Shown here: positions 2,772 to 45,593 of the stretch, piece by piece | Position numbering within the stretch: position 1 is the stretch's first letter | How the letters are laid out: each line of letters begins with the position of its first letter | Sequence record: PQ351811 | DNA: 64,000 nt | DNA from: Shigella phage SSG23 | Strand: one strand, 5' to 3' | Position numbers and translations under genes: made by a program | Notes under the pieces: generated by a model | The model's database searches: none | Told to the model about the DNA's origin: nothing | The model's input: the letters and a program-made list of their open reading frames with translations, nothing else

Positions 2772-4766
2772 TTATGCCTGGTTAGCTGGACCGATAATTT
2801 CGTCAAAATCAGCACCAGTTGCAACAGCAGTGAAATTGAGCATGATATAGTTGATCGATTTTGCTGGTTTGATGAACATACTAGCAACAAATTCGTTACG
2901 ATCAATTACATCCGGCGTGTTGTTCGTGGTGTCGCATTGTACTCGGAAGTCATAAATGCCACCCAGAGAGCGAATCGTGCTGAGGTATTGCGAAACCTCC
3001 ATACGGAAGGAAGCGCGAGTAAAGTTATCGTTGTTTTCAAACAGTTTGTATTTGCTTGAATCGCCGATATTCTTTTTCAGCATATTAAACAGACGACGAA
3101 CGTTAATGCGGTCAAACGGGCTAGGAACAGTCGTAGCGGTTTTATCACCCATCAGGATAAACCCTTCACCGCCAGCACCGATTACCGGGTTAATTGCGGC
3201 TTGATACAGACGATCACGGTGCGCCTTGCGAGGCTCAATTGCCAGCTTAACCACGTTCATGATCTGACCACGGTTATAACCTGCCGGACTCATCCACGGC
3301 TGCGATACAGCATCAGTACGAGCACACAAACCAGCGATATCAGCAGCCAACGGAATCCAACGGTTTACATCGTTATATTTGTCATACTGATATTTGTAGT
3401 TACCATCAATAACCGCGTAAGTGGTATTAATGTTCATGTTGTTTTCATTATAGTTTCCTGAACCTTCGCGCCATGCAATCAGGTTATCAATTGCAGTAGT
3501 CACCGGAATATTAACAACAGTGCTACGCGGCGGAGAAACCATTACTAAGCAATCCTGACGCTCATCACCGATAGAAACAGCATGTTTCTGTACGGTAGAG
3601 AATGCATCACCTTCACCAGCACATGCACCAGCGATCAGAAGGTTTACGTGAATAGATTCACGTTCAGCAAACAGATCCCAGCCTTGCATCATCGCACTAA
3701 CAAACGGATCAGCACCAACACCAGCGGTTGCTTCGTTGGCAGAAACACCACCAGCAAGAGAAATAATGCCACTGAAACCATCTACCCAACCCTGAGCGGT
3801 TGCATAAATGTACTGGCTAGCACCACGAGCAAAGAAGTCGTCCATATAGATAGAATTGCCGTAGACGTCTTTATCTCCTTTCAGAGTAGACAGTACATAG
3901 GATTCTACCACAACACCATCGCGACGAACAATAAACGCATATTGATTATCATTCTGCGGCGCATATGGAATCAGGTTGCGTGCTGCGGTGCGCTCGCCAC
4001 CATAAGGATACATGGTCAGATCCGGTGCAGTATTCTTAAACGCACTACGTGCCAGAATTTCAACTTCCAGCGAGTTGCCAATCTCACCAGCATAGATCGC
4101 GCTTACAGCTGGCATATCATACTTCTTGAGTTTAGTCAAGAAAGTTTGATTCGTGATATTGGCGCGGGAAGTTTCCATGTCAGTTAACAGAAGACCGGAG
4201 TCGACCACAATTCCAGATACAGTGATCGATGCACCTGAGTTACCGCTATCAGAAATGATTTCTACAGTGTATCCTTCCAGTTTTGGATATGCCCCGATTG
4301 TTTTTGCGTGTGCAATCAGCTTACCAGTTGGAATAAAAATACCTTTGATCTTACCTTCCGACGAAATTTTTGTAACCTTTCCGCCAGTTTCAATTTCAGA
4401 ACTTTTGTATTTTACTTTAATTGTATCGCCAACCTTATAGTTTGAACCTTCGTTTGTGATTTCAAACTCGACGTTACCAGCTAGGGTAGTTGCGTTTTTT
4501 GCTTTTTCTTTATTCAGTACACGAACAACACGCAGGTCATTACCGTACTGGAGGAAGTTAGCCCCGCTCATGAAATAGTCTGCGGTGTTATTATCCGGCT
4601 GACCAAATTTATTAACTAATTCAACTTCATTAGTTACTTGAATAATCTGGAAAGCTGGACCCCATTGGAATTTACCTACCAGTGCCGCGCGACCAGTCGC
4701 AGATTGCACAATGGTAGTGGAGAGAGTAGTTTCTTTCGTTTCGAAACCCGGTGATAATAGAGTCAT
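2772..4766 (-). CDS. gp18: tail sheath protein gp18
   Basis: 664 aa (T4 gp18 659 aa); position between terminase and tail tube genes. Confidence 0.85.
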   Translation of the reverse strand: MTLLSPGFETKETTLSTTIVQSATGRAALVGKFQWGPAFQIIQVTNEVELVNKFGQPDNNTADYFMSGANFLQYGNDLRVVRVLNKEKAKNATTLAGNVEFEITNEGSNYKVGDTIKVKYKSSEIETGGKVTKISSEGKIKGIFIPTGKLIAHAKTIGAYPKLEGYTVEIISDSGNSGASITVSGIVVDSGLLLTDMETSRANITNQTFLTKLKKYDMPAVSAIYAGEIGNSLEVEILARSAFKNTAPDLTMYPYGGERTAARNLIPYAPQNDNQYAFIVRRDGVVVESYVLSTLKGDKDVYGNSIYMDDFFARGASQYIYATAQGWVDGFSGIISLAGGVSANEATAGVGADPFVSAMMQGWDLFAERESIHVNLLIAGACAGEGDAFSTVQKHAVSIGDERQDCLVMVSPPRSTVVNIPVTTAIDNLIAWREGSGNYNENNMNINTTYAVIDGNYKYQYDKYNDVNRWIPLAADIAGLCARTDAVSQPWMSPAGYNRGQIMNVVKLAIEPRKAHRDRLYQAAINPVIGAGGEGFILMGDKTATTVPSPFDRINVRRLFNMLKKNIGDSSKYKLFENNDNFTRASFRMEVSQYLSTIRSLGGIYDFRVQCDTTNNTPDVIDRNEFVASMFIKPAKSINYIMLNFTAVATGADFDEIIGPANQA

Positions 4767-30427: not shown

Positions 30428-30892
30428 ATGACCCCGTTTCGAGAATCCGTTAAAGGTACATATGCGGCGGTTAAATTCACTGAGGATACACTAGACCGCA
30501 TTGAAAAATTGCAGGAGTTCTACAATCTGCCTAATGCCGTTCCTCGTGATAAACTTCATAGTACGATCTTATATTCTCGTGTTTATGTTCCGTTTATCCC
30601 AGAAGATGGTGAAAAGTTTTTAGGCTCTCTATGCCATCTGAAAGTGTTTGAAACTCAATCCGGTACTAATGCACTTGTGCTGGCATTTGAAAGCGACTAC
30701 ATGCAATTCAGACACGATATCGGCACTGCTTTAGGTGCGACGTGGGATTATCCTGAATATGTACCGCATATCACGCTTTCTTATGATGTTGGTGCGCGTA
30801 AATTTGGCACTGACCTAGAGTTCGATTTAGAGATTGTCCGATCTCATGAATATGTCGAAGATCTAGACCTGGAGTGGACGACCAAACTGTAA
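30428..30892 (+). CDS. acb1: 2H phosphoesterase, 57B/Acb1-like (anti-CBASS cyclic-nucleotide phosphodiesterase)
   Basis: 154 aa; two H-x-T/S-x motifs (HSTIL, HITLS) typical of 2H/LigT fold; same position as T4 57B. Confidence 0.6.
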   Translation: MTPFRESVKGTYAAVKFTEDTLDRIEKLQEFYNLPNAVPRDKLHSTILYSRVYVPFIPEDGEKFLGSLCHLKVFETQSGTNALVLAFESDYMQFRHDIGTALGATWDYPEYVPHITLSYDVGARKFGTDLEFDLEIVRSHEYVEDLDLEWTTKL

Positions 30893-37253: not shown

Positions 37254-37378
37254 TGAAAAATAAAGATAGCGTAGCTCGTCGATTCCGTGCTACAATCAAT
37301 AAGAATCGTAAAGTCCAACCTGATAAACTCTATGGGGTTTTGGTTGGAAAAGTTAATGACGAACGTCCTGATCTATAA
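37253..37378 (+). CDS. possible small basic protein (41 aa)
   Basis: Short ORF in the gap before GrcA, start overlapping previous stop (TAATG); unsupported otherwise. Confidence 0.25.
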   Translation: MKNKDSVARRFRATINKNRKVQPDKLYGVLVGKVNDERPDL

Positions 37379-37390
37379 AAGAGGTGAATT

Positions 37391-37807
37391 ATGGAATTTA
37401 AAGCAATTCAAATCATGAAAGGTGAGCATAAAGGTACTATTATTGGTGGACACTTCGCGCCTATGATTCTGGTATCCGAACCGAAAGCACTGATCGGCGC
37501 TAAAGTAATTGTTAGTAAAACTTTCGCAGAAGACCATGTGATCACCGCAGAAGACGTCGATTCGCTGGAACTGCACACAACTAGCTTCCGTCCTGTTGTT
37601 GTAGATAATGGTGCTCCGGTTGTCGAAGGTGGTCAACACCTAAATGTTAACGTATTGTTACGAGAAATGTTGCTGGACGCGGTTGAACATCCTGAGAAGT
37701 ACCCGCAGCTTACAATTCGCGTTTCTGGTTACGCAGTGCGCTTCAATAGTCTGACTCCAGACCAGCAGCGTGACGTGATCGCGCGTACCTTTACCGAATC
37801 TCTCTAA
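37391..37807 (+). CDS. grcA: autonomous glycyl radical cofactor GrcA (YfiD-like)
   Basis: 138 aa; C-terminal [12 protein letters not shown]...[35 protein letters not shown], glycyl-radical motif RVSGY; as I recall it, near-identical to E. coli GrcA. Confidence 0.9.
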
Positions 37808-37817
37808 TTTTTCATCA

Positions 37818-37849
37818 AGCCAATCCGAAAAGGGTTGGCTTTTTCTTTA
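37818..37849 (+). terminator. rho-independent terminator
   Basis: Hairpin AAGCCAATCCGAAAAGGGTTGGCTT followed by TTTTCTTTAT. Confidence 0.75.
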
Positions 37850-37893
37850 TAGTGTGATACGATGCAATCTCTTAATCAACTGAGGGTTTAATT

Positions 37894-38592
37894 ATGCATA
37901 CAATGGTTAAAATGGTCTTTGGATCTCACTTATACGGCCTTGATACTGAAAATTCCGATAAAGATTATCGTGGTATCTTTGTTCCAACTGCGAAAGAAAT
38001 TATCTTAGGATCGATGAAAGAACACTATGACCAAAGCACTAGCGGTCAAGGTATCAAGAACACCAAAGACGATATTGATGTTAATATGTTCAGTCTAAAA
38101 AGGTTTATCAACCTGGCATGTAAAGGTGATATTGGCGCTATTGACATTGTGCACGCGCCTAGTAACATGTTGATTGAATCCTCCAGAGAATGGGAATACA
38201 TCCGAACACATCGCGATAAATTCTATCATGTTGGTATGTGGGGTTGTTCTGGCTATCTCAAAAAGCAGGTAGCCAAATCTGAAAAGTATTTCAGTAACTG
38301 GAAAGATCTTTCTCATGCTCTGCGTGTTGGTTATCAGCTACTTGAAATCTATCAGACAGGTGATCTACAATTCCCACTCGCTCGACGTTCTTCTATTTTA
38401 GCGTGTAAGTTAGGAGAAAGAACCTTTGATAATGTGCGGGAAGAATTGAAAGATCTCTACGAACGTGTTAAACTCGCGCGTGAAGAGGCAAAGAAAAACG
38501 GGATGCCAGAAGAACCAGATGTTGACTTTTGGAAAGATTTATTAGAATATATTCATCTGACCGTTGTTCTTGAACACTATACCCGTGGTTAG
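37894..38592 (+). CDS. pol-beta superfamily nucleotidyltransferase-like protein
   Basis: 232 aa; N-terminal GSHLYGLDTENSDKD fits the GS-x(9-13)-D-x-D nucleotidyltransferase signature. Confidence 0.55.
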   Translation: MHTMVKMVFGSHLYGLDTENSDKDYRGIFVPTAKEIILGSMKEHYDQSTSGQGIKNTKDDIDVNMFSLKRFINLACKGDIGAIDIVHAPSNMLIESSREWEYIRTHRDKFYHVGMWGCSGYLKKQVAKSEKYFSNWKDLSHALRVGYQLLEIYQTGDLQFPLARRSSILACKLGERTFDNVREELKDLYERVKLAREEAKKNGMPEEPDVDFWKDLLEYIHLTVVLEHYTRG

Positions 38593-38613
38593 TTAATATA
38601 GGAGATTAATAAA

Positions 38614-38808
38614 ATGCAAGTTTATACCAATAGCAATAAAGGACAAGATATTACGCCCGGAAAGATGTATGATTTTACCCCGGCACGAGACGACGAAAAT
38701 CCACCGACAATCGGTTACATCAAAGATGATATAGGTTATCGTATTACGATACTTCTTGATGGTGGATGTTCTCATCTTCGCGGTGATAAATGGGAGTTAG
38801 TACCATGA
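38614..38808 (+). CDS. hypothetical protein, YGYIKDD paralog 1
   Basis: 64 aa; shares TPxKxYxFTP...GYIKDD...CSHL motif with next two ORFs. Confidence 0.5.
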   Translation: MQVYTNSNKGQDITPGKMYDFTPARDDENPPTIGYIKDDIGYRITILLDGGCSHLRGDKWELVP

Positions 38809-39050
38809 TGTATGTTATGACACCTTATAGTAGTAGATCTTACATCACCCCAAATAAACTGTATAAGTTTACGCCAGATGAAAGAATGTCTACCTACGGT
38901 TACATCAAAGATGATAAAGGATACGAACTTTTTATTTCTCTGAAAAGTTGTGCATACCTTGATGACCGTCCGTGGACACTGATCGAAAAACCAAAACAAC
39001 CTGAGAATAAAGGTCTTTGGAATGTGCTAAAAAAATTCTTGAAAAAGTAG
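38805..39050 (+). CDS. hypothetical protein, YGYIKDD paralog 2
   Basis: ORF 38790-39050 trimmed to ATG overlapping previous stop (ATGA). Confidence 0.5.
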   Translation: MMYVMTPYSSRSYITPNKLYKFTPDERMSTYGYIKDDKGYELFISLKSCAYLDDRPWTLIEKPKQPENKGLWNVLKKFLKK

Positions 39051-39079
39051 TTGACAGCATGAAACGGGGGTAGTAATAT
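39051..39079 (+). promoter_or_regulatory. early promoter cassette P6 with palindromic spacer
   Basis: TTGACA, spacer with GGGGGTA/TACCCCC palindrome, TAATAT, then CATCGAAACAACAACGGAGTATTAAAATG. Confidence 0.6.
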
Positions 39080-39110
39080 ACCCCCATCGAAACAACAACG
39101 GAGTATTAAA

Positions 39111-39449
39111 ATGAGTGTTAAAGAAGTGTTTGTTTATACCGACTATGACGGGTGCGCCTATATCACCGCCGGAAAACTTTACCGATGTGAAATTATTCAT
39201 GGTACATTAGGTCGAATTATGTGCGATCCGGTTACAAAATTGTGGAAAAGCAATCCTAGTGAGCGAGAAACTCTTATTAACCTAGATCCAGACGGTTGTT
39301 CACATTTGGACTATAGAAAATGGCATATCGTGACACATGATGCTTATGGTATTCATCTTGCTACTAAAGAATTAACTATAGAGAAATTCAAGTTTAAAGA
39401 AATCCCGTTTGTATACTGGCTTCGCAATTTGTTCAAGAAAGGAGAATAA
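39111..39449 (+). CDS. hypothetical protein, YGYIKDD paralog 3
   Basis: 112 aa; AGKLYRCE...DPDGCSHLDYRKWHIV resembles the preceding two ORFs. Confidence 0.5.
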   Translation: MSVKEVFVYTDYDGCAYITAGKLYRCEIIHGTLGRIMCDPVTKLWKSNPSERETLINLDPDGCSHLDYRKWHIVTHDAYGIHLATKELTIEKFKFKEIPFVYWLRNLFKKGE

Positions 39450-39450
39450 A

Positions 39451-39873
39451 ATGGAAACAATTAATGTACATGTTCGTCGTAGCAAGCTGCGTCGATTCTT
39501 CGAAACTGAAATGCGCAAAACTAATGCACAGATCAAAGAAAAGTGCTTGAATGATGGTTACGGTGAGTATATTTTCATTCGCTTTAGTCCGCATATGATC
39601 GACCGTCTAACCGATCGTCATATCGATGAACATAAGACAATGGAACTATTCAATAAGGTAGAAACTCGTTTACCTGAGATCTTCAAGTTCTTGAAAATGG
39701 AAGACCGACCTAACCGACTAGAAATCACTGACGGTAACATGTGGATCGGGATGACAGTAGATCTAATCGAAGACGGTAAACCGTATTACGGGCTATGCTG
39801 CCGAATGATTATAGAGAATCCAAAGCGACTGGCGGGTAAAATGTCGGCGGTTGTTTTGAAAGTGGACCAATAA
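39451..39873 (+). CDS. hypothetical protein
   Basis: ORF 39409-39873 trimmed to ATG after AAGGAGAATAAA RBS. Confidence 0.5.
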   Translation: METINVHVRRSKLRRFFETEMRKTNAQIKEKCLNDGYGEYIFIRFSPHMIDRLTDRHIDEHKTMELFNKVETRLPEIFKFLKMEDRPNRLEITDGNMWIGMTVDLIEDGKPYYGLCCRMIIENPKRLAGKMSAVVLKVDQ

Positions 39874-39895
39874 TGGAAATTGGTTAAATTAATGC

Positions 39896-39923
39896 TTGAC
39901 TTTCTGGTGATAGGGCTATATTA
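39896..39923 (+). promoter_or_regulatory. possible promoter (TGCTTGACT ... TATATT)
   Basis: TTGACT with a 15-16 bp spacer to TATATT upstream of the secreted SLT-like gene; spacing suboptimal. Confidence 0.35.
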
Positions 39924-40931: not shown

Positions 40932-41387
40932 ATGATTATTGATACTGTAAAGGGCGATCTCATCGCCCTGTTTAAACAAGGAAACGGTCATTTAATTCAT
41001 GGTTGTAATTGTTTTCATACTATGGGCGCTGGTATTGCTGCGGATATCGCAAAAGAGTTCCCGCAAGCGTTAGAGATTGACAAGCAAACTTCTCGCGGTA
41101 AGGTAGAAAAGCTGGGTGGGTTTAGTGTCTGGACGCATCAAGTTAATGGTTATAACTGGTGTGGGGTGAATCTCTATACCCAATTCCGACCGGGTCCAAA
41201 TGCTGAATATAGTGCTATCCTGAAAGGATTTGAGTCTCTCAATGATGTTTTTGAAGGTGCTATACAGCCTTTCTATATTCCTAAAATCGGTTGCGGTATC
41301 GGTGGCCTTGAGTGGGAATGCGTAGAAGAAATCATTAATATTGCTACTCCAGATATCAATATTGTGGTGGTTGAATATGGCAAATAA
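40932..41387 (+). CDS. macro domain protein (ADP-ribose binding/processing)
   Basis: 151 aa; HGCNCFHTMGAGIA and KIGCGIGGL glycine-rich motifs characteristic of macro domains. Confidence 0.65.
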   Translation: MIIDTVKGDLIALFKQGNGHLIHGCNCFHTMGAGIAADIAKEFPQALEIDKQTSRGKVEKLGGFSVWTHQVNGYNWCGVNLYTQFRPGPNAEYSAILKGFESLNDVFEGAIQPFYIPKIGCGIGGLEWECVEEIINIATPDINIVVVEYGK

Positions 41388-43445: not shown

Positions 43446-45593
43446 ATGCCAGCAGAAATTAAAAACACTACAATTAACTCTCAAATTTGGCTTCCTCATA
43501 CTTTTGAATGTTCGATTGTTGCCGAGTCGGATGACCCGGAGAAAAGACGAAAAGGATATTTATGGAAAAAGAACGATAAGTTGATCACAATGACCGATGG
43601 TCCGTCTTTTCCGCTAAAGTCTGTTAAAGAGGAAGATAAAACAGGTTGGTCTGTTAATGTTCGTGGTTTTGCTCAAGATGATGAAAATCTTTCTGGCGAA
43701 TCCGTAGATATCGGTACGGAAAACTTCACCTTTGAACTTTTTGATAATCCATATGTGGAACATGTATACCCGCCTACGTCTTTTAATATTGGTGATGAAA
43801 TCAAGGCAAAGATTGTTTTTCGTAGTCATATCCAGCCTAATATTTCGGTTGACCTTTATTATAATGATGGTTTGGTTGATTCCGTTGACGGTGATCTGGG
43901 GTTAGACCATCGTGAATTTAAAATTGCAAAATTCGCGTGGCCTGAATTTTCCGGTACATATAAAATGGAATTGAGTGATGAACATGGTGAGGTTAAGTTT
44001 GTATATCCTTTCTATGCAAATATCACTGAAAATAAGGAAGTATTCAACGTACAAAAATATGCACCTGCCTATTTTACAGTAGAGGATGATGCACCGAATC
44101 AGGCGGAATATACTATTGTCCGATATCGACTAGAGCGCAATGATGGTAGTTTGGTTTATGAGTCTAAAGATAAGACTCTATACGTGACTAAACACGCTCA
44201 ACCGTCCGATGCTGGGGTTTATATTGCTTTTGTTCGTGCATATAAGGTTGTTAATGGACCTGGTGCTGGGACCGAATATGTGGATGGTGAAAAACATCGA
44301 TTCACAGTTAACGTAAAAGAAAACGAATTTTTTAGCCGTGATTTTAGTGCTATTGATTTTCGTTATCCTTCTGGGTCTACTGTAAACCTTGATATGCCAG
44401 TGATGCAAGCCGATAGCTCATGGAATCGTCATTATGGTATGCTTACTAACAACGTTTACTTTACGTGGATGCTTGGCGGTAAGAAACTACAAAGTAAAAA
44501 ATATGGTGATGAAGGATATGACCGAATCACATTATCTGGATTGCAATATGATAACAGCGTTGCGCTTCAATTGTTGGTTGCTCCTGCCAATCCAGCGGGT
44601 GAACAGGTGATTCCTAACGGTCGCCCATTATTTTATGATCGTCGTATGCTTGAGATTTATGATAAAGAGTATGATTATCGTAATATTGAAGTGGGTGAAC
44701 CGATTGTTCTCAAGATCGTAGATCCTGAACCGCCAGCTAGTGATGATCCTGAACAAACGCGAACTTTGGTTATCACCAAAAACGACGTTAAAGTAACGGA
44801 ACTTCCACTAGGTACTAAGGAATATAAGATCACCGACTCTGCGGACCGAGACCATAACGGCATCTGGGCGCATGAATATCGTGATAGTCCGAGTAAAGAT
44901 CCATTTAGTGCACATACTGATTTTGATATTGCTGGTCGTTCGACCTATCATGTTGAAGTAGTGCCGAATATGGAGTTTGACGGTCCTCATCCTGTGCAGG
45001 TGACGGAGGGTGATACCCTGACGCTAGAAGCAACCATGCTAAAACCGCCAGCCTCATATGTTCCGACTTATGAGTTTAGTAAAAACGGTGTTAAAATGGA
45101 AATGGAAGACCCAAGAAGTCCGATTTACCGTAAAGCAAACGTTACGCTAGAGGATGCTGGTGTTTATCGATTTGTTGCATTTGCTGATAAAAACAGCAAC
45201 GATGAACTAGATCCTGGCGAGATTGTCGGGTATACAAAATATGTTCAGGTTGTAGTTAATAAACGTCCTGTGCGACCGGATGAACCTAGACCGGAAGTTA
45301 AAATTGTTACTATGTTTAACGAGTTTAGCAAAGGTCGATTTAGTCCGTGTCCGTATTGGGTAATTGATGAGCTTGTCGAATTGATGGAAGACCCGCATGG
45401 CTGGATGGATAAACTTGAAGATTCTGTCTACTATGACTGGCAAATCACTATCTTTAATGAGTTCCTAAAAGGCAAGGATTTGTATCTTCAAGATTCGTGT
45501 AATGGTTACTGGGCGATTGTCCGCCAGAAGGATATGTCTATTGAAACTGGCTATGGTCGATTCAAACACTACTATACAAATGGACGTGAATAA
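43446..45593 (+). CDS. large acidic protein with Ig-like repeat signatures
   Basis: 715 aa; repeated D-x-G-x-Y beta-sandwich-like motifs (PSDAGVYIAFVRAY, LEDAGVYRFVAFAD). Confidence 0.55.
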   Translation: MPAEIKNTTINSQIWLPHTFECSIVAESDDPEKRRKGYLWKKNDKLITMTDGPSFPLKSVKEEDKTGWSVNVRGFAQDDENLSGESVDIGTENFTFELFDNPYVEHVYPPTSFNIGDEIKAKIVFRSHIQPNISVDLYYNDGLVDSVDGDLGLDHREFKIAKFAWPEFSGTYKMELSDEHGEVKFVYPFYANITENKEVFNVQKYAPAYFTVEDDAPNQAEYTIVRYRLERNDGSLVYESKDKTLYVTKHAQPSDAGVYIAFVRAYKVVNGPGAGTEYVDGEKHRFTVNVKENEFFSRDFSAIDFRYPSGSTVNLDMPVMQADSSWNRHYGMLTNNVYFTWMLGGKKLQSKKYGDEGYDRITLSGLQYDNSVALQLLVAPANPAGEQVIPNGRPLFYDRRMLEIYDKEYDYRNIEVGEPIVLKIVDPEPPASDDPEQTRTLVITKNDVKVTELPLGTKEYKITDSADRDHNGIWAHEYRDSPSKDPFSAHTDFDIAGRSTYHVEVVPNMEFDGPHPVQVTEGDTLTLEATMLKPPASYVPTYEFSKNGVKMEMEDPRSPIYRKANVTLEDAGVYRFVAFADKNSNDELDPGEIVGYTKYVQVVVNKRPVRPDEPRPEVKIVTMFNEFSKGRFSPCPYWVIDELVELMEDPHGWMDKLEDSVYYDWQITIFNEFLKGKDLYLQDSCNGYWAIVRQKDMSIETGYGRFKHYYTNGRE

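Follow-up and report, generated by a model that had tools for sequence, protein, structure and literature searches.

An open reading frame (ORF) at positions 37,894 to 38,592 of Shigella phage SSG23 DNA (PQ351811) encodes a protein of 232 amino acids which, judging from sequence profiles, almost certainly belongs to the RlaP / NrdC.11 family of Pol-beta-type nucleotidyltransferases (NTases). The stretch that we analysed, here called the window, is 64,000 nucleotides long. By analogy with characterised RlaPs the protein probably adds nucleotides to RNA 3' ends. A role in tRNA repair as a counter-defence of the phage, which rests on the same analogy, is a tentative proposal that we would not yet put on an equal footing with its opposite. 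Taken as one composite reading, that of an RlaP-family NTase which extends RNA 3' ends and takes part in tRNA repair together with the phage enzymes Pnkp and Rnl1, the interpretation has our slight preference.

The gene is an already known and annotated member of a known family, and the window reveals no system of a new kind. In Krischvirus records, RefSeq included, the ORF is labelled 'nucleotidyltransferase', and it carries the gene name nrdC.11 in Phi1. Moreover, matches of nrdC.11 orthologues to the COG3541 nucleotidyltransferase, and of vs.6 to Gly_radical, were noted as early as 2006 by Nolan et al. (PMC1524935). Given these labels and that paper, both the NTase identity and the GrcA-like neighbour, which an initial annotation of this DNA had pointed out from the letters alone, are part of existing annotation. 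The only small point that is new is the compact architecture of the protein, together with an apparently repeated loss of the insert found in T4-type relatives.

Family membership

Positions 37300-39900 of the window are 100% identical to Shigella phage SFHK24 (PQ351812; a window coordinate is the SFHK24 record coordinate minus 3341) and 93-96% identical to 57 other RB49/Phi1-like records (Krischvirus, Straboviridae). The protein matches the Pfam family PF10127, RlaP, at E = 6e-14; its score of 52.7 bits exceeds the curated cut-off of 23, and residues 7-191 align with positions 24-198 of the 249 in the profile. PF10127 is described as 'RNA repair pathway DNA polymerase beta family', and RlaP stands for 'RNA ligase-associating Pol-beta'. 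There is also a match to PHROG 388 'nucleotidyltransferase' (E = 3e-79), and the nearest relatives are the NrdC.11 proteins of T4-like phages. No model matched in an NCBIfam scan.

An exhaustive HMMER search of 1.84 billion proteins returned 3544 cluster representatives with E <= 1e-3, 168 of them at E <= 1e-30. By tblastn, homologues are present in 1583 phage records, chiefly those of T4-like phages of enterobacteria, Aeromonas and Acinetobacter; phages of Bacillus, Mycobacterium, Gordonia and Microbacterium likewise hold RlaP homologues.

The initial annotation placed the ORF in the Pol-beta superfamily, and the PF10127 match, the predicted fold and the conserved acidic residues all agree with this. 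Its narrower suggestions, namely minimal NTases, cGAS/DncV-like enzymes and antitoxin-type NTases, do not fit the protein. A cGAS/DncV-like enzyme is not indicated: PADLOC gave no match for the NTase or for three neighbours, the Pfam match is to RlaP only, and there is no CD-NTase among the 50-60 best structural matches listed. A protein of 232 amino acids with a fused helical domain, as modelled, is hardly a minimal NTase. The same fused domain speaks against an antitoxin of MNT type, as do the lack of an adjoining HEPN gene and of a conserved Rx4-6H motif. The sole R-x4-H in the protein (R107...H112) was considered as a HEPN motif and rejected, its His being non-conserved.

Active site and selection

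The features of the gene and its product are as follows.

37882..37886, + strand: Shine-Dalgarno sequence GAGGG, 7 nucleotides 5' of the ATG, by direct sequence reading
37894..38592, + strand: predicted RlaP-family NTase gene, orthologue of T4 nrdC.11, short form; ATG start, 232 amino acids plus stop
37894..38184, + strand: predicted N-terminal Pol-beta NTase domain, approximately residues 1-97, with strands 2-9, 24-30, 44-48 and 62-67
37921..37965, + strand: NTase signature G10-S11 ... D22-x-D24, GSHLYGLDTENSDKD, by direct sequence reading
38059..38079, + strand: motif N56-T-K-D-D-I-D62, in which D60 and/or D62, where strand 62-67 begins, is the predicted third catalytic carboxylate
38239..38589, + strand: predicted C-terminal helical domain, helices 116-131, 136-155, 165-172, 178-201 and 210-230
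38284..38301, + strand: junction SEKYFS, residues ~131-136, where T4-type proteins have a module of ~100 amino acids with alpha and beta structure (from the alignment, Pfam coverage and a model of the long form P0017)

The signature GS-x(9-13)-D-x-D named in the initial annotation is indeed present, in the form GS-x10-DxD: residues 10-24, GSHLYGLDTENSDKD, consist of G10-S11, ten residues and D22-K23-D24. The ORF was also said to begin with this motif, which in fact starts at residue 10. In 35 homologues G10, S11, D22, D24, D60 and D62 are invariant, and so is N56. A more divergent alignment, which reaches down to 24% identity and includes the homologues of Bcp1, Itos and A3Wally (24-29%), leaves G10, S11, G15, S21, D22, D60, G78, R107, Y121, K137 and R144 invariant; there position 62 carries either acidic residue, D or E, and a single sequence has N in place of D24. 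As far as can be read from the alignments, the GS / DxD / D-x-D active site is intact. The gene is under strong purifying selection: compared with Phi1 and GEC-3S it has 21 synonymous and 3 non-synonymous changes, a ratio of non-synonymous to synonymous rates (dN/dS) of 0.034.

Predicted structure and the rival readings that it suggests

The AlphaFold2 model of the protein, built from the 35-sequence alignment, has a mean predicted local distance difference test score (pLDDT) of 91.9 and a predicted template modelling score (pTM) of 0.88. In this model the protein has two domains, an N-terminal Pol-beta NTase domain and a C-terminal helical domain of HEPN/KNTase-like appearance, in which Y121, K124, K137, H141 and R144 are conserved. 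The two checks proposed in the initial annotation thus come out in the same direction: the NTase fold is there in the predicted structure and the acidic residues are kept across homologues, which would favour an active NTase.

When the model was compared with the Protein Data Bank (PDB) by Foldseek, the top matches were two-domain Pol-beta NTases only: ANT(4')/KNTase, Hailong HalB, LinB, AAD(9), AadA and Tam41. KNTase scored E = 3e-5 and HalB 6e-5, the two-domain antibiotic NTases ranging from 3e-5 to 1e-3; identities over the PDB matches were 11-13% and template modelling (TM) scores 0.26-0.46. Among the viral models in BFVD, the best matches were phage 'nucleotidyltransferases' with TMq of 0.7-0.84. 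Sequence searches of the PDB, with the single protein as well as with the 35-sequence profile, gave chance-level matches only.

These matches invite the reading that the enzyme is a small-molecule or protein NTase of the KNTase / ANT / LinB / MNT type, which would adenylylate an antibiotic-like metabolite or AMPylate a HEPN toxin. ANT(4')/KNTase, LinB, AAD(9) and AadA lead the Foldseek results and have the two-domain plan, NTase plus helical domain, in common with the phage protein; in the structural search its C-terminal domain also resembles HEPN domains, those of AMPylated HEPN toxins included. However, the antibiotic enzymes act on small molecules and belong to other sequence families, and at such identities and a TM score of ~0.4 the resemblance is one of fold. 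MNT-HEPN complexes are weak structural matches only (rank 46 in Foldseek against the PDB). The tested members of RlaP, the sequence family to which the phage protein belongs, left E. coli proteins unlabelled (PMC12776372). There is no HEPN toxin gene nearby, the Rx4-6H motif is not conserved and H112 is variable. We therefore regard this reading as highly improbable.

It is equally improbable, in our opinion, that the protein is a nucleotide-signal enzyme, either a CD-NTase-like cyclase or an oligodeoxyadenylate synthase like HalB, which would hold the Hailong HalA channel shut as a counter-defence. HalB makes oligo-dA as a defence signal (PMC13434031). It is of similar size (217 amino acids), and RlaP is able to use deoxyadenosine triphosphate (PMC12776372). 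On the other hand, neither HalB nor any other PDB chain has sequence similarity to the phage protein, even by profile search, and there were no PADLOC or CD-NTase family matches. Because the scores of KNTase and other two-domain NTases are close to that of HalB, the likeness to HalB (PDB 9dbh/9dbj) exists at the level of the fold only, and no HalA partner is seen. Characterised RlaPs, moreover, extend RNA by 1-2 nucleotides only and do not extend DNA (PMC12776372). HalB primes on tyrosine. A corresponding priming residue was sought in the phage protein (Y229 here, YY in T4-type proteins) and rejected, as no Tyr is positionally conserved in the C-terminal tails of 151 homologues.

A compact form of NrdC.11

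The NrdC.11 proteins of T4, T6 and the RB phages have ~336 amino acids. They share with the Krischvirus protein PHROG 388, the invariant residues and 44% identity over both conserved blocks, but the latter is ~100 amino acids shorter. It aligns with the N-terminal ~130 and the C-terminal ~100 residues of the T4/T6 type, and the ~100 residues between them (T6 residues ~131-235) are missing. In the long form P0017 (AlphaFold2, pLDDT 87.6) this module is modelled as a helix, a beta-hairpin, a helix, three strands and a long helix. The Pfam RlaP profile is contiguous on short forms, while on the T6 protein it extends only up to the insertion point, at profile position 142; measured against canonical RlaP, the module is thus a T4-clade insertion.

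Among the homologues fetched, 259 of 267 are 300-360 amino acids long. The present protein is ~100 amino acids below 95% of its close relatives, and its length equals that of canonical RlaPs; the name NrdC.11 is used in the records of Phi1, RB43 and JS98 alike. Further short forms exist (P0002, which is 57% identical to the Krischvirus protein, P0146, P0153 and P0232), with differing junctions and remnants of a flanking 'KYG.KGS' motif. In a rough neighbour-joining tree short forms are found in among long ones at three points or more, from which we infer that the module is dispensable and was lost repeatedly. The Krischvirus junction is the tightest of all, and the canonical '..RPEL..hGYDtK' segment before the D-x-K..H..R helix is shortened too.

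It could be argued that such a protein is a decaying remnant, an enzyme inactivated by a deletion of ~100 amino acids relative to T4-type NrdC.11; the unusual length and the shortened segment before the D-x-K...H..R helix agree with this. In our opinion it is very unlikely. The low dN/dS ratio is not that of a decaying gene, all catalytic and conserved basic residues are retained, and the predicted structure is compact and confident. Further, the protein has the canonical RlaP length with a contiguous match to the Pfam profile, and short forms occur at no fewer than three places of the tree and persist, P0002 having diverged to 57% identity.

A naturally minimal phage RlaP of 232 amino acids with all its catalytic residues is possibly a handy construct for assays and crystallography, and a comparison of short and long forms could reveal the role of the T4-specific inserted module.

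Proposed role in RNA repair

The biochemistry on which our functional reading is modelled is that of Carruthers, Fatma and Huang (bioRxiv, December 2025; PMC12776372), who studied two Pseudomonas RlaPs, PfRlaP and PaRlaP, encoded between rtcB and rtcA. According to this work the two enzymes add 1-2 nucleoside monophosphates or deoxynucleoside monophosphates, from any nucleoside triphosphate (NTP), to the 3'-OH of RNA; neither DNA nor protein receives them. Their preferred metal ions are Mn2+ or Co2+, and their favoured substrate is the 5' half of a mimic of tRNA cleaved in the anticodon loop; they also raise the aminoacylation of repaired tRNA that is short of one nucleotide. The crystal structure of PfRlaP has an NTase domain with three conserved Asp and a helical domain, the terminal helix of which packs back on the NTase domain.

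The Pseudomonas proteins share PF10127 and a similar length with the phage protein. The published architecture may also be that of our model, which shows an NTase domain, a helical domain and a terminal helix at residues 210-230. They are nevertheless remote relatives from another network cluster, and the phage gene is not flanked by rtcB and rtcA. Its partner ligase would differ as well: the phage would use Rnl1, a 5'-phosphate ligase, and Pseudomonas RlaP would use RtcB.

Iyer et al. (2021; PMC7824862) predicted that RlaPs of phages put back, ahead of ligation, the nucleotides that nucleases such as RloC have removed, and the citing papers (PMC12776372, PMC7824862) give Burroughs & Aravind (2016) as the source of this prediction. 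The sequence of events would be the following. A host anticodon nuclease such as RloC would cleave a tRNA and excise a nucleotide; phage Pnkp would heal the ends to 3'-OH and 5'-P; the RlaP enzyme would add a nucleotide back, with a preference for broken tRNA-like substrates if it behaves as its Pseudomonas homologues do; and Rnl1 would seal the break, so that some of the tRNA pool would be recovered and abortive infection would fail. Chemically the scheme hangs together, because Pnkp gives 3'-OH and 5'-P ends, RlaP needs and leaves a 3'-OH, and Rnl1 joins 3'-OH to 5'-P. The initial annotation had spoken of tRNA or protein nucleotidylation during host takeover. As regards tRNA this came close to the likely chemistry, but the purpose that is predicted for the family is RNA repair as a counter-defence.

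The partners required by the scheme are encoded by these phages. The block of pseT (Pnkp) and rnlA (Rnl1) is present in all 58 of the 58 Krischvirus records that hold the NTase gene, SFHK24 and Phi1 included, and in T4-like groups the record counts per host genus of NTase and RnlA are almost identical, which is a coarse indicator. In the Microbacterium phage A3Wally the homologue adjoins a gene annotated as 'RNA ligase' and metallophosphoesterases. Adjacency to an RNA ligase or RNA-repair operon is not seen in the window, where the neighbours are vs.6, three small ORFs and regB. Since such adjacency holds for some family members only, its absence here is compatible with RlaP membership.

Several points weigh against the proposal. 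First, pseT and rnlA lie at 129789-132651 in SFHK24, ~88 kb from the NTase gene and outside the window, and the gene-neighbourhood evidence that defines the family is thus absent in this genome. The co-distribution of NTase and RnlA may merely reflect that both are conserved in T4-like phages, and in Bacillus phage Bcp1 and mycobacteriophage Itos there is no annotated RNA ligase within 4 kb on either side of the homologue. Second, in the sequence-similarity network of the family T4 NrdC.11 belongs to cluster 5 and not to the characterised cluster 1a, and its label there is 'unknown function' (PMC12776372). RNA 3'-end addition is shown for the Pseudomonas RlaPs only, and even for bacterial RlaPs the repair role is a proposal (PMC12776372). 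Third, with the ~100-residue module missing and the canonical segment shortened, substrate recognition by the Krischvirus enzyme could differ. Fourth, the bacterial enzymes choose their nucleotide unselectively (PMC12776372), hence most repaired products would be wrong. Finally, T4 can do without nrdC.11 under laboratory conditions (PMC9825161).

The temperate Mycobacterium phage Itos deserves a separate remark. Its RlaP homologue (locus L008, 3968-4714) lies in an integrase/repressor neighbourhood beside an Lsr2-like gene. Such a locus is typical of prophage-expressed genes and hints at a different use of the RlaP family there.

The same chemistry could also serve an offensive or regulatory purpose. 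In that case the enzyme would tail either the acceptor ends of host tRNAs, blocking aminoacylation in the manner of MenT, or mRNA fragments such as those made by the endoribonuclease RegB, thereby influencing their decay. MenT itself is of an NTase family other than RlaP. We consider tailing unlikely, though it has certain merits: what the enzyme would do to RNA is identical to what repair would require, and in vitro full-length tRNA and rRNA are labelled by the Pseudomonas enzymes as well, with any NTP (PMC12776372). In Krischvirus the gene lies ~860 nucleotides upstream of regB, and the order M15 endolysin, vs.6, RlaP is kept in the divergent contig L010. However, in T4/T6 the gene belongs to the nrdC region, a long way from regB, which makes the closeness to regB a lineage-specific trait. 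RlaP also favours the end of a broken anticodon loop over the acceptor end (PMC12776372).

A variant of these ideas would confine itself to the compact Krischvirus enzyme. After the loss of its module it would be a non-repair NTase, HalB-like or MenT-like, and its products, untemplated tails or oligomers of (deoxy)nucleotides, would either imitate or top up an immune 'all-clear' signal of the host, such as the oligo-dA of Hailong, or disable host tRNAs. What speaks for it is that HalB has the nearest solved fold; we give it very little credence.

If the repair role is correct, the RlaP enzyme would be a third component beside Pnkp and Rnl1 in T4-like phages, one that defeats RloC-type anticodon nucleases, whose removal of a nucleotide serves specifically to frustrate repair. 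The idea dates back to publications of 2016-2021, and the RlaP biochemistry of 2025 has made it testable.

Gene neighbourhood

Two features lie directly upstream of the NTase gene.

37391..37807, + strand: GrcA-like gene of the vs.6 family (Pfam Gly_radical, 61 bits; TIGR04365 GrcA, 135 bits against a cut-off of 170)
37817..37841, + strand: terminator-like hairpin, a 10-bp stem followed by a T-run, inside the 86-nucleotide spacer between vs.6 and the NTase gene

The gene order in Krischvirus is M15 endolysin, vs.8, a small ORF, vs.6, nrdC.11, three small ORFs and regB, followed by vs.1 (SLT), vs, tk.4 (macro domain) and on to tk. No HEPN, effector or RNA ligase gene is found near the NTase gene in the window. 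The initial annotation was right that no HEPN or effector gene is close by; the notion that a HEPN partner is missing is not upheld. A promoter scan gave a count not above that of shuffled sequences, with no convincing promoter directly 5' of the NTase gene.

The initial annotation correctly named a GrcA gene as the upstream neighbour, the protein being GrcA-like and of the T4 vs.6 family. A functional coupling between the NTase and this gene was considered and is rejected. A terminator-like hairpin lies between the two, and at the equivalent place in GEC-3S a hairpin is annotated as a terminator. In L010 an insertion between them is tolerated. In T6 nrdC.11 is at another locus, between genes of the mobD region and nrdC.10, with vs.6 unlinked to it. 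Accordingly, the adjacency to GrcA seems incidental and lineage-specific.

The insertion in L010, a metagenomic Krischvirus-like contig, is an HNH/NUMOD4 homing endonuclease gene (3951-4547) between the GrcA-like and RlaP genes, at the position that in the window is taken by the terminator-holding spacer. The RlaP of this contig is a 57%-identical short form, and the contig ends before any position where regB might be. The Vs.6 protein (37391-37807, + strand) is a GrcA-like autonomous glycyl-radical 'spare part' module, above the Pfam Gly_radical threshold, with ~35 extra amino acids at its N-terminus. Genes for the anaerobic NrdD/NrdG also belong to the phage, as seen in Phi1.

The three small ORFs between the NTase gene and regB, all on the + strand (38614-38808, 38790/38805-39050 and 39111-39449), are tandem paralogues of 64, 81-86 and 112 amino acids. 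They belong to phrog_6261 and phrog_15978, which cross-match, and have no Pfam match; small ORFs follow the NTase gene in L010 as well.

Other genes in the window

Two genes downstream of regB, the Tk.4 homologue at 40932-41387 (+ strand), annotated as 'phosphatase', contains a macro domain (PF01661, 29.5 bits). After an rI.-1-like gene (DUF5856) there is an ORF of 715 amino acids at 43446-45593 (+ strand). Its only match, a weak Ig-like one, stays below the cut-off (Ig_3, 21.6 bits), and since the equivalent position of Phi1 has no counterpart, it gives the impression of a strain-specific accessory gene. Finally, the label 'RNA ligase' that SFHK24 carries for the ORF at 30428-30892 (+ strand) is misleading. 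The match of this ORF to the 2'-5' RNA ligase superfamily is sub-threshold, and it lies in the position of T4 57B, after the deoxynucleoside monophosphate kinase gene and 57A; the product is a homologue of the anti-CBASS 2H-phosphodiesterase Acb1 (PF23474, E = 1.5e-51).
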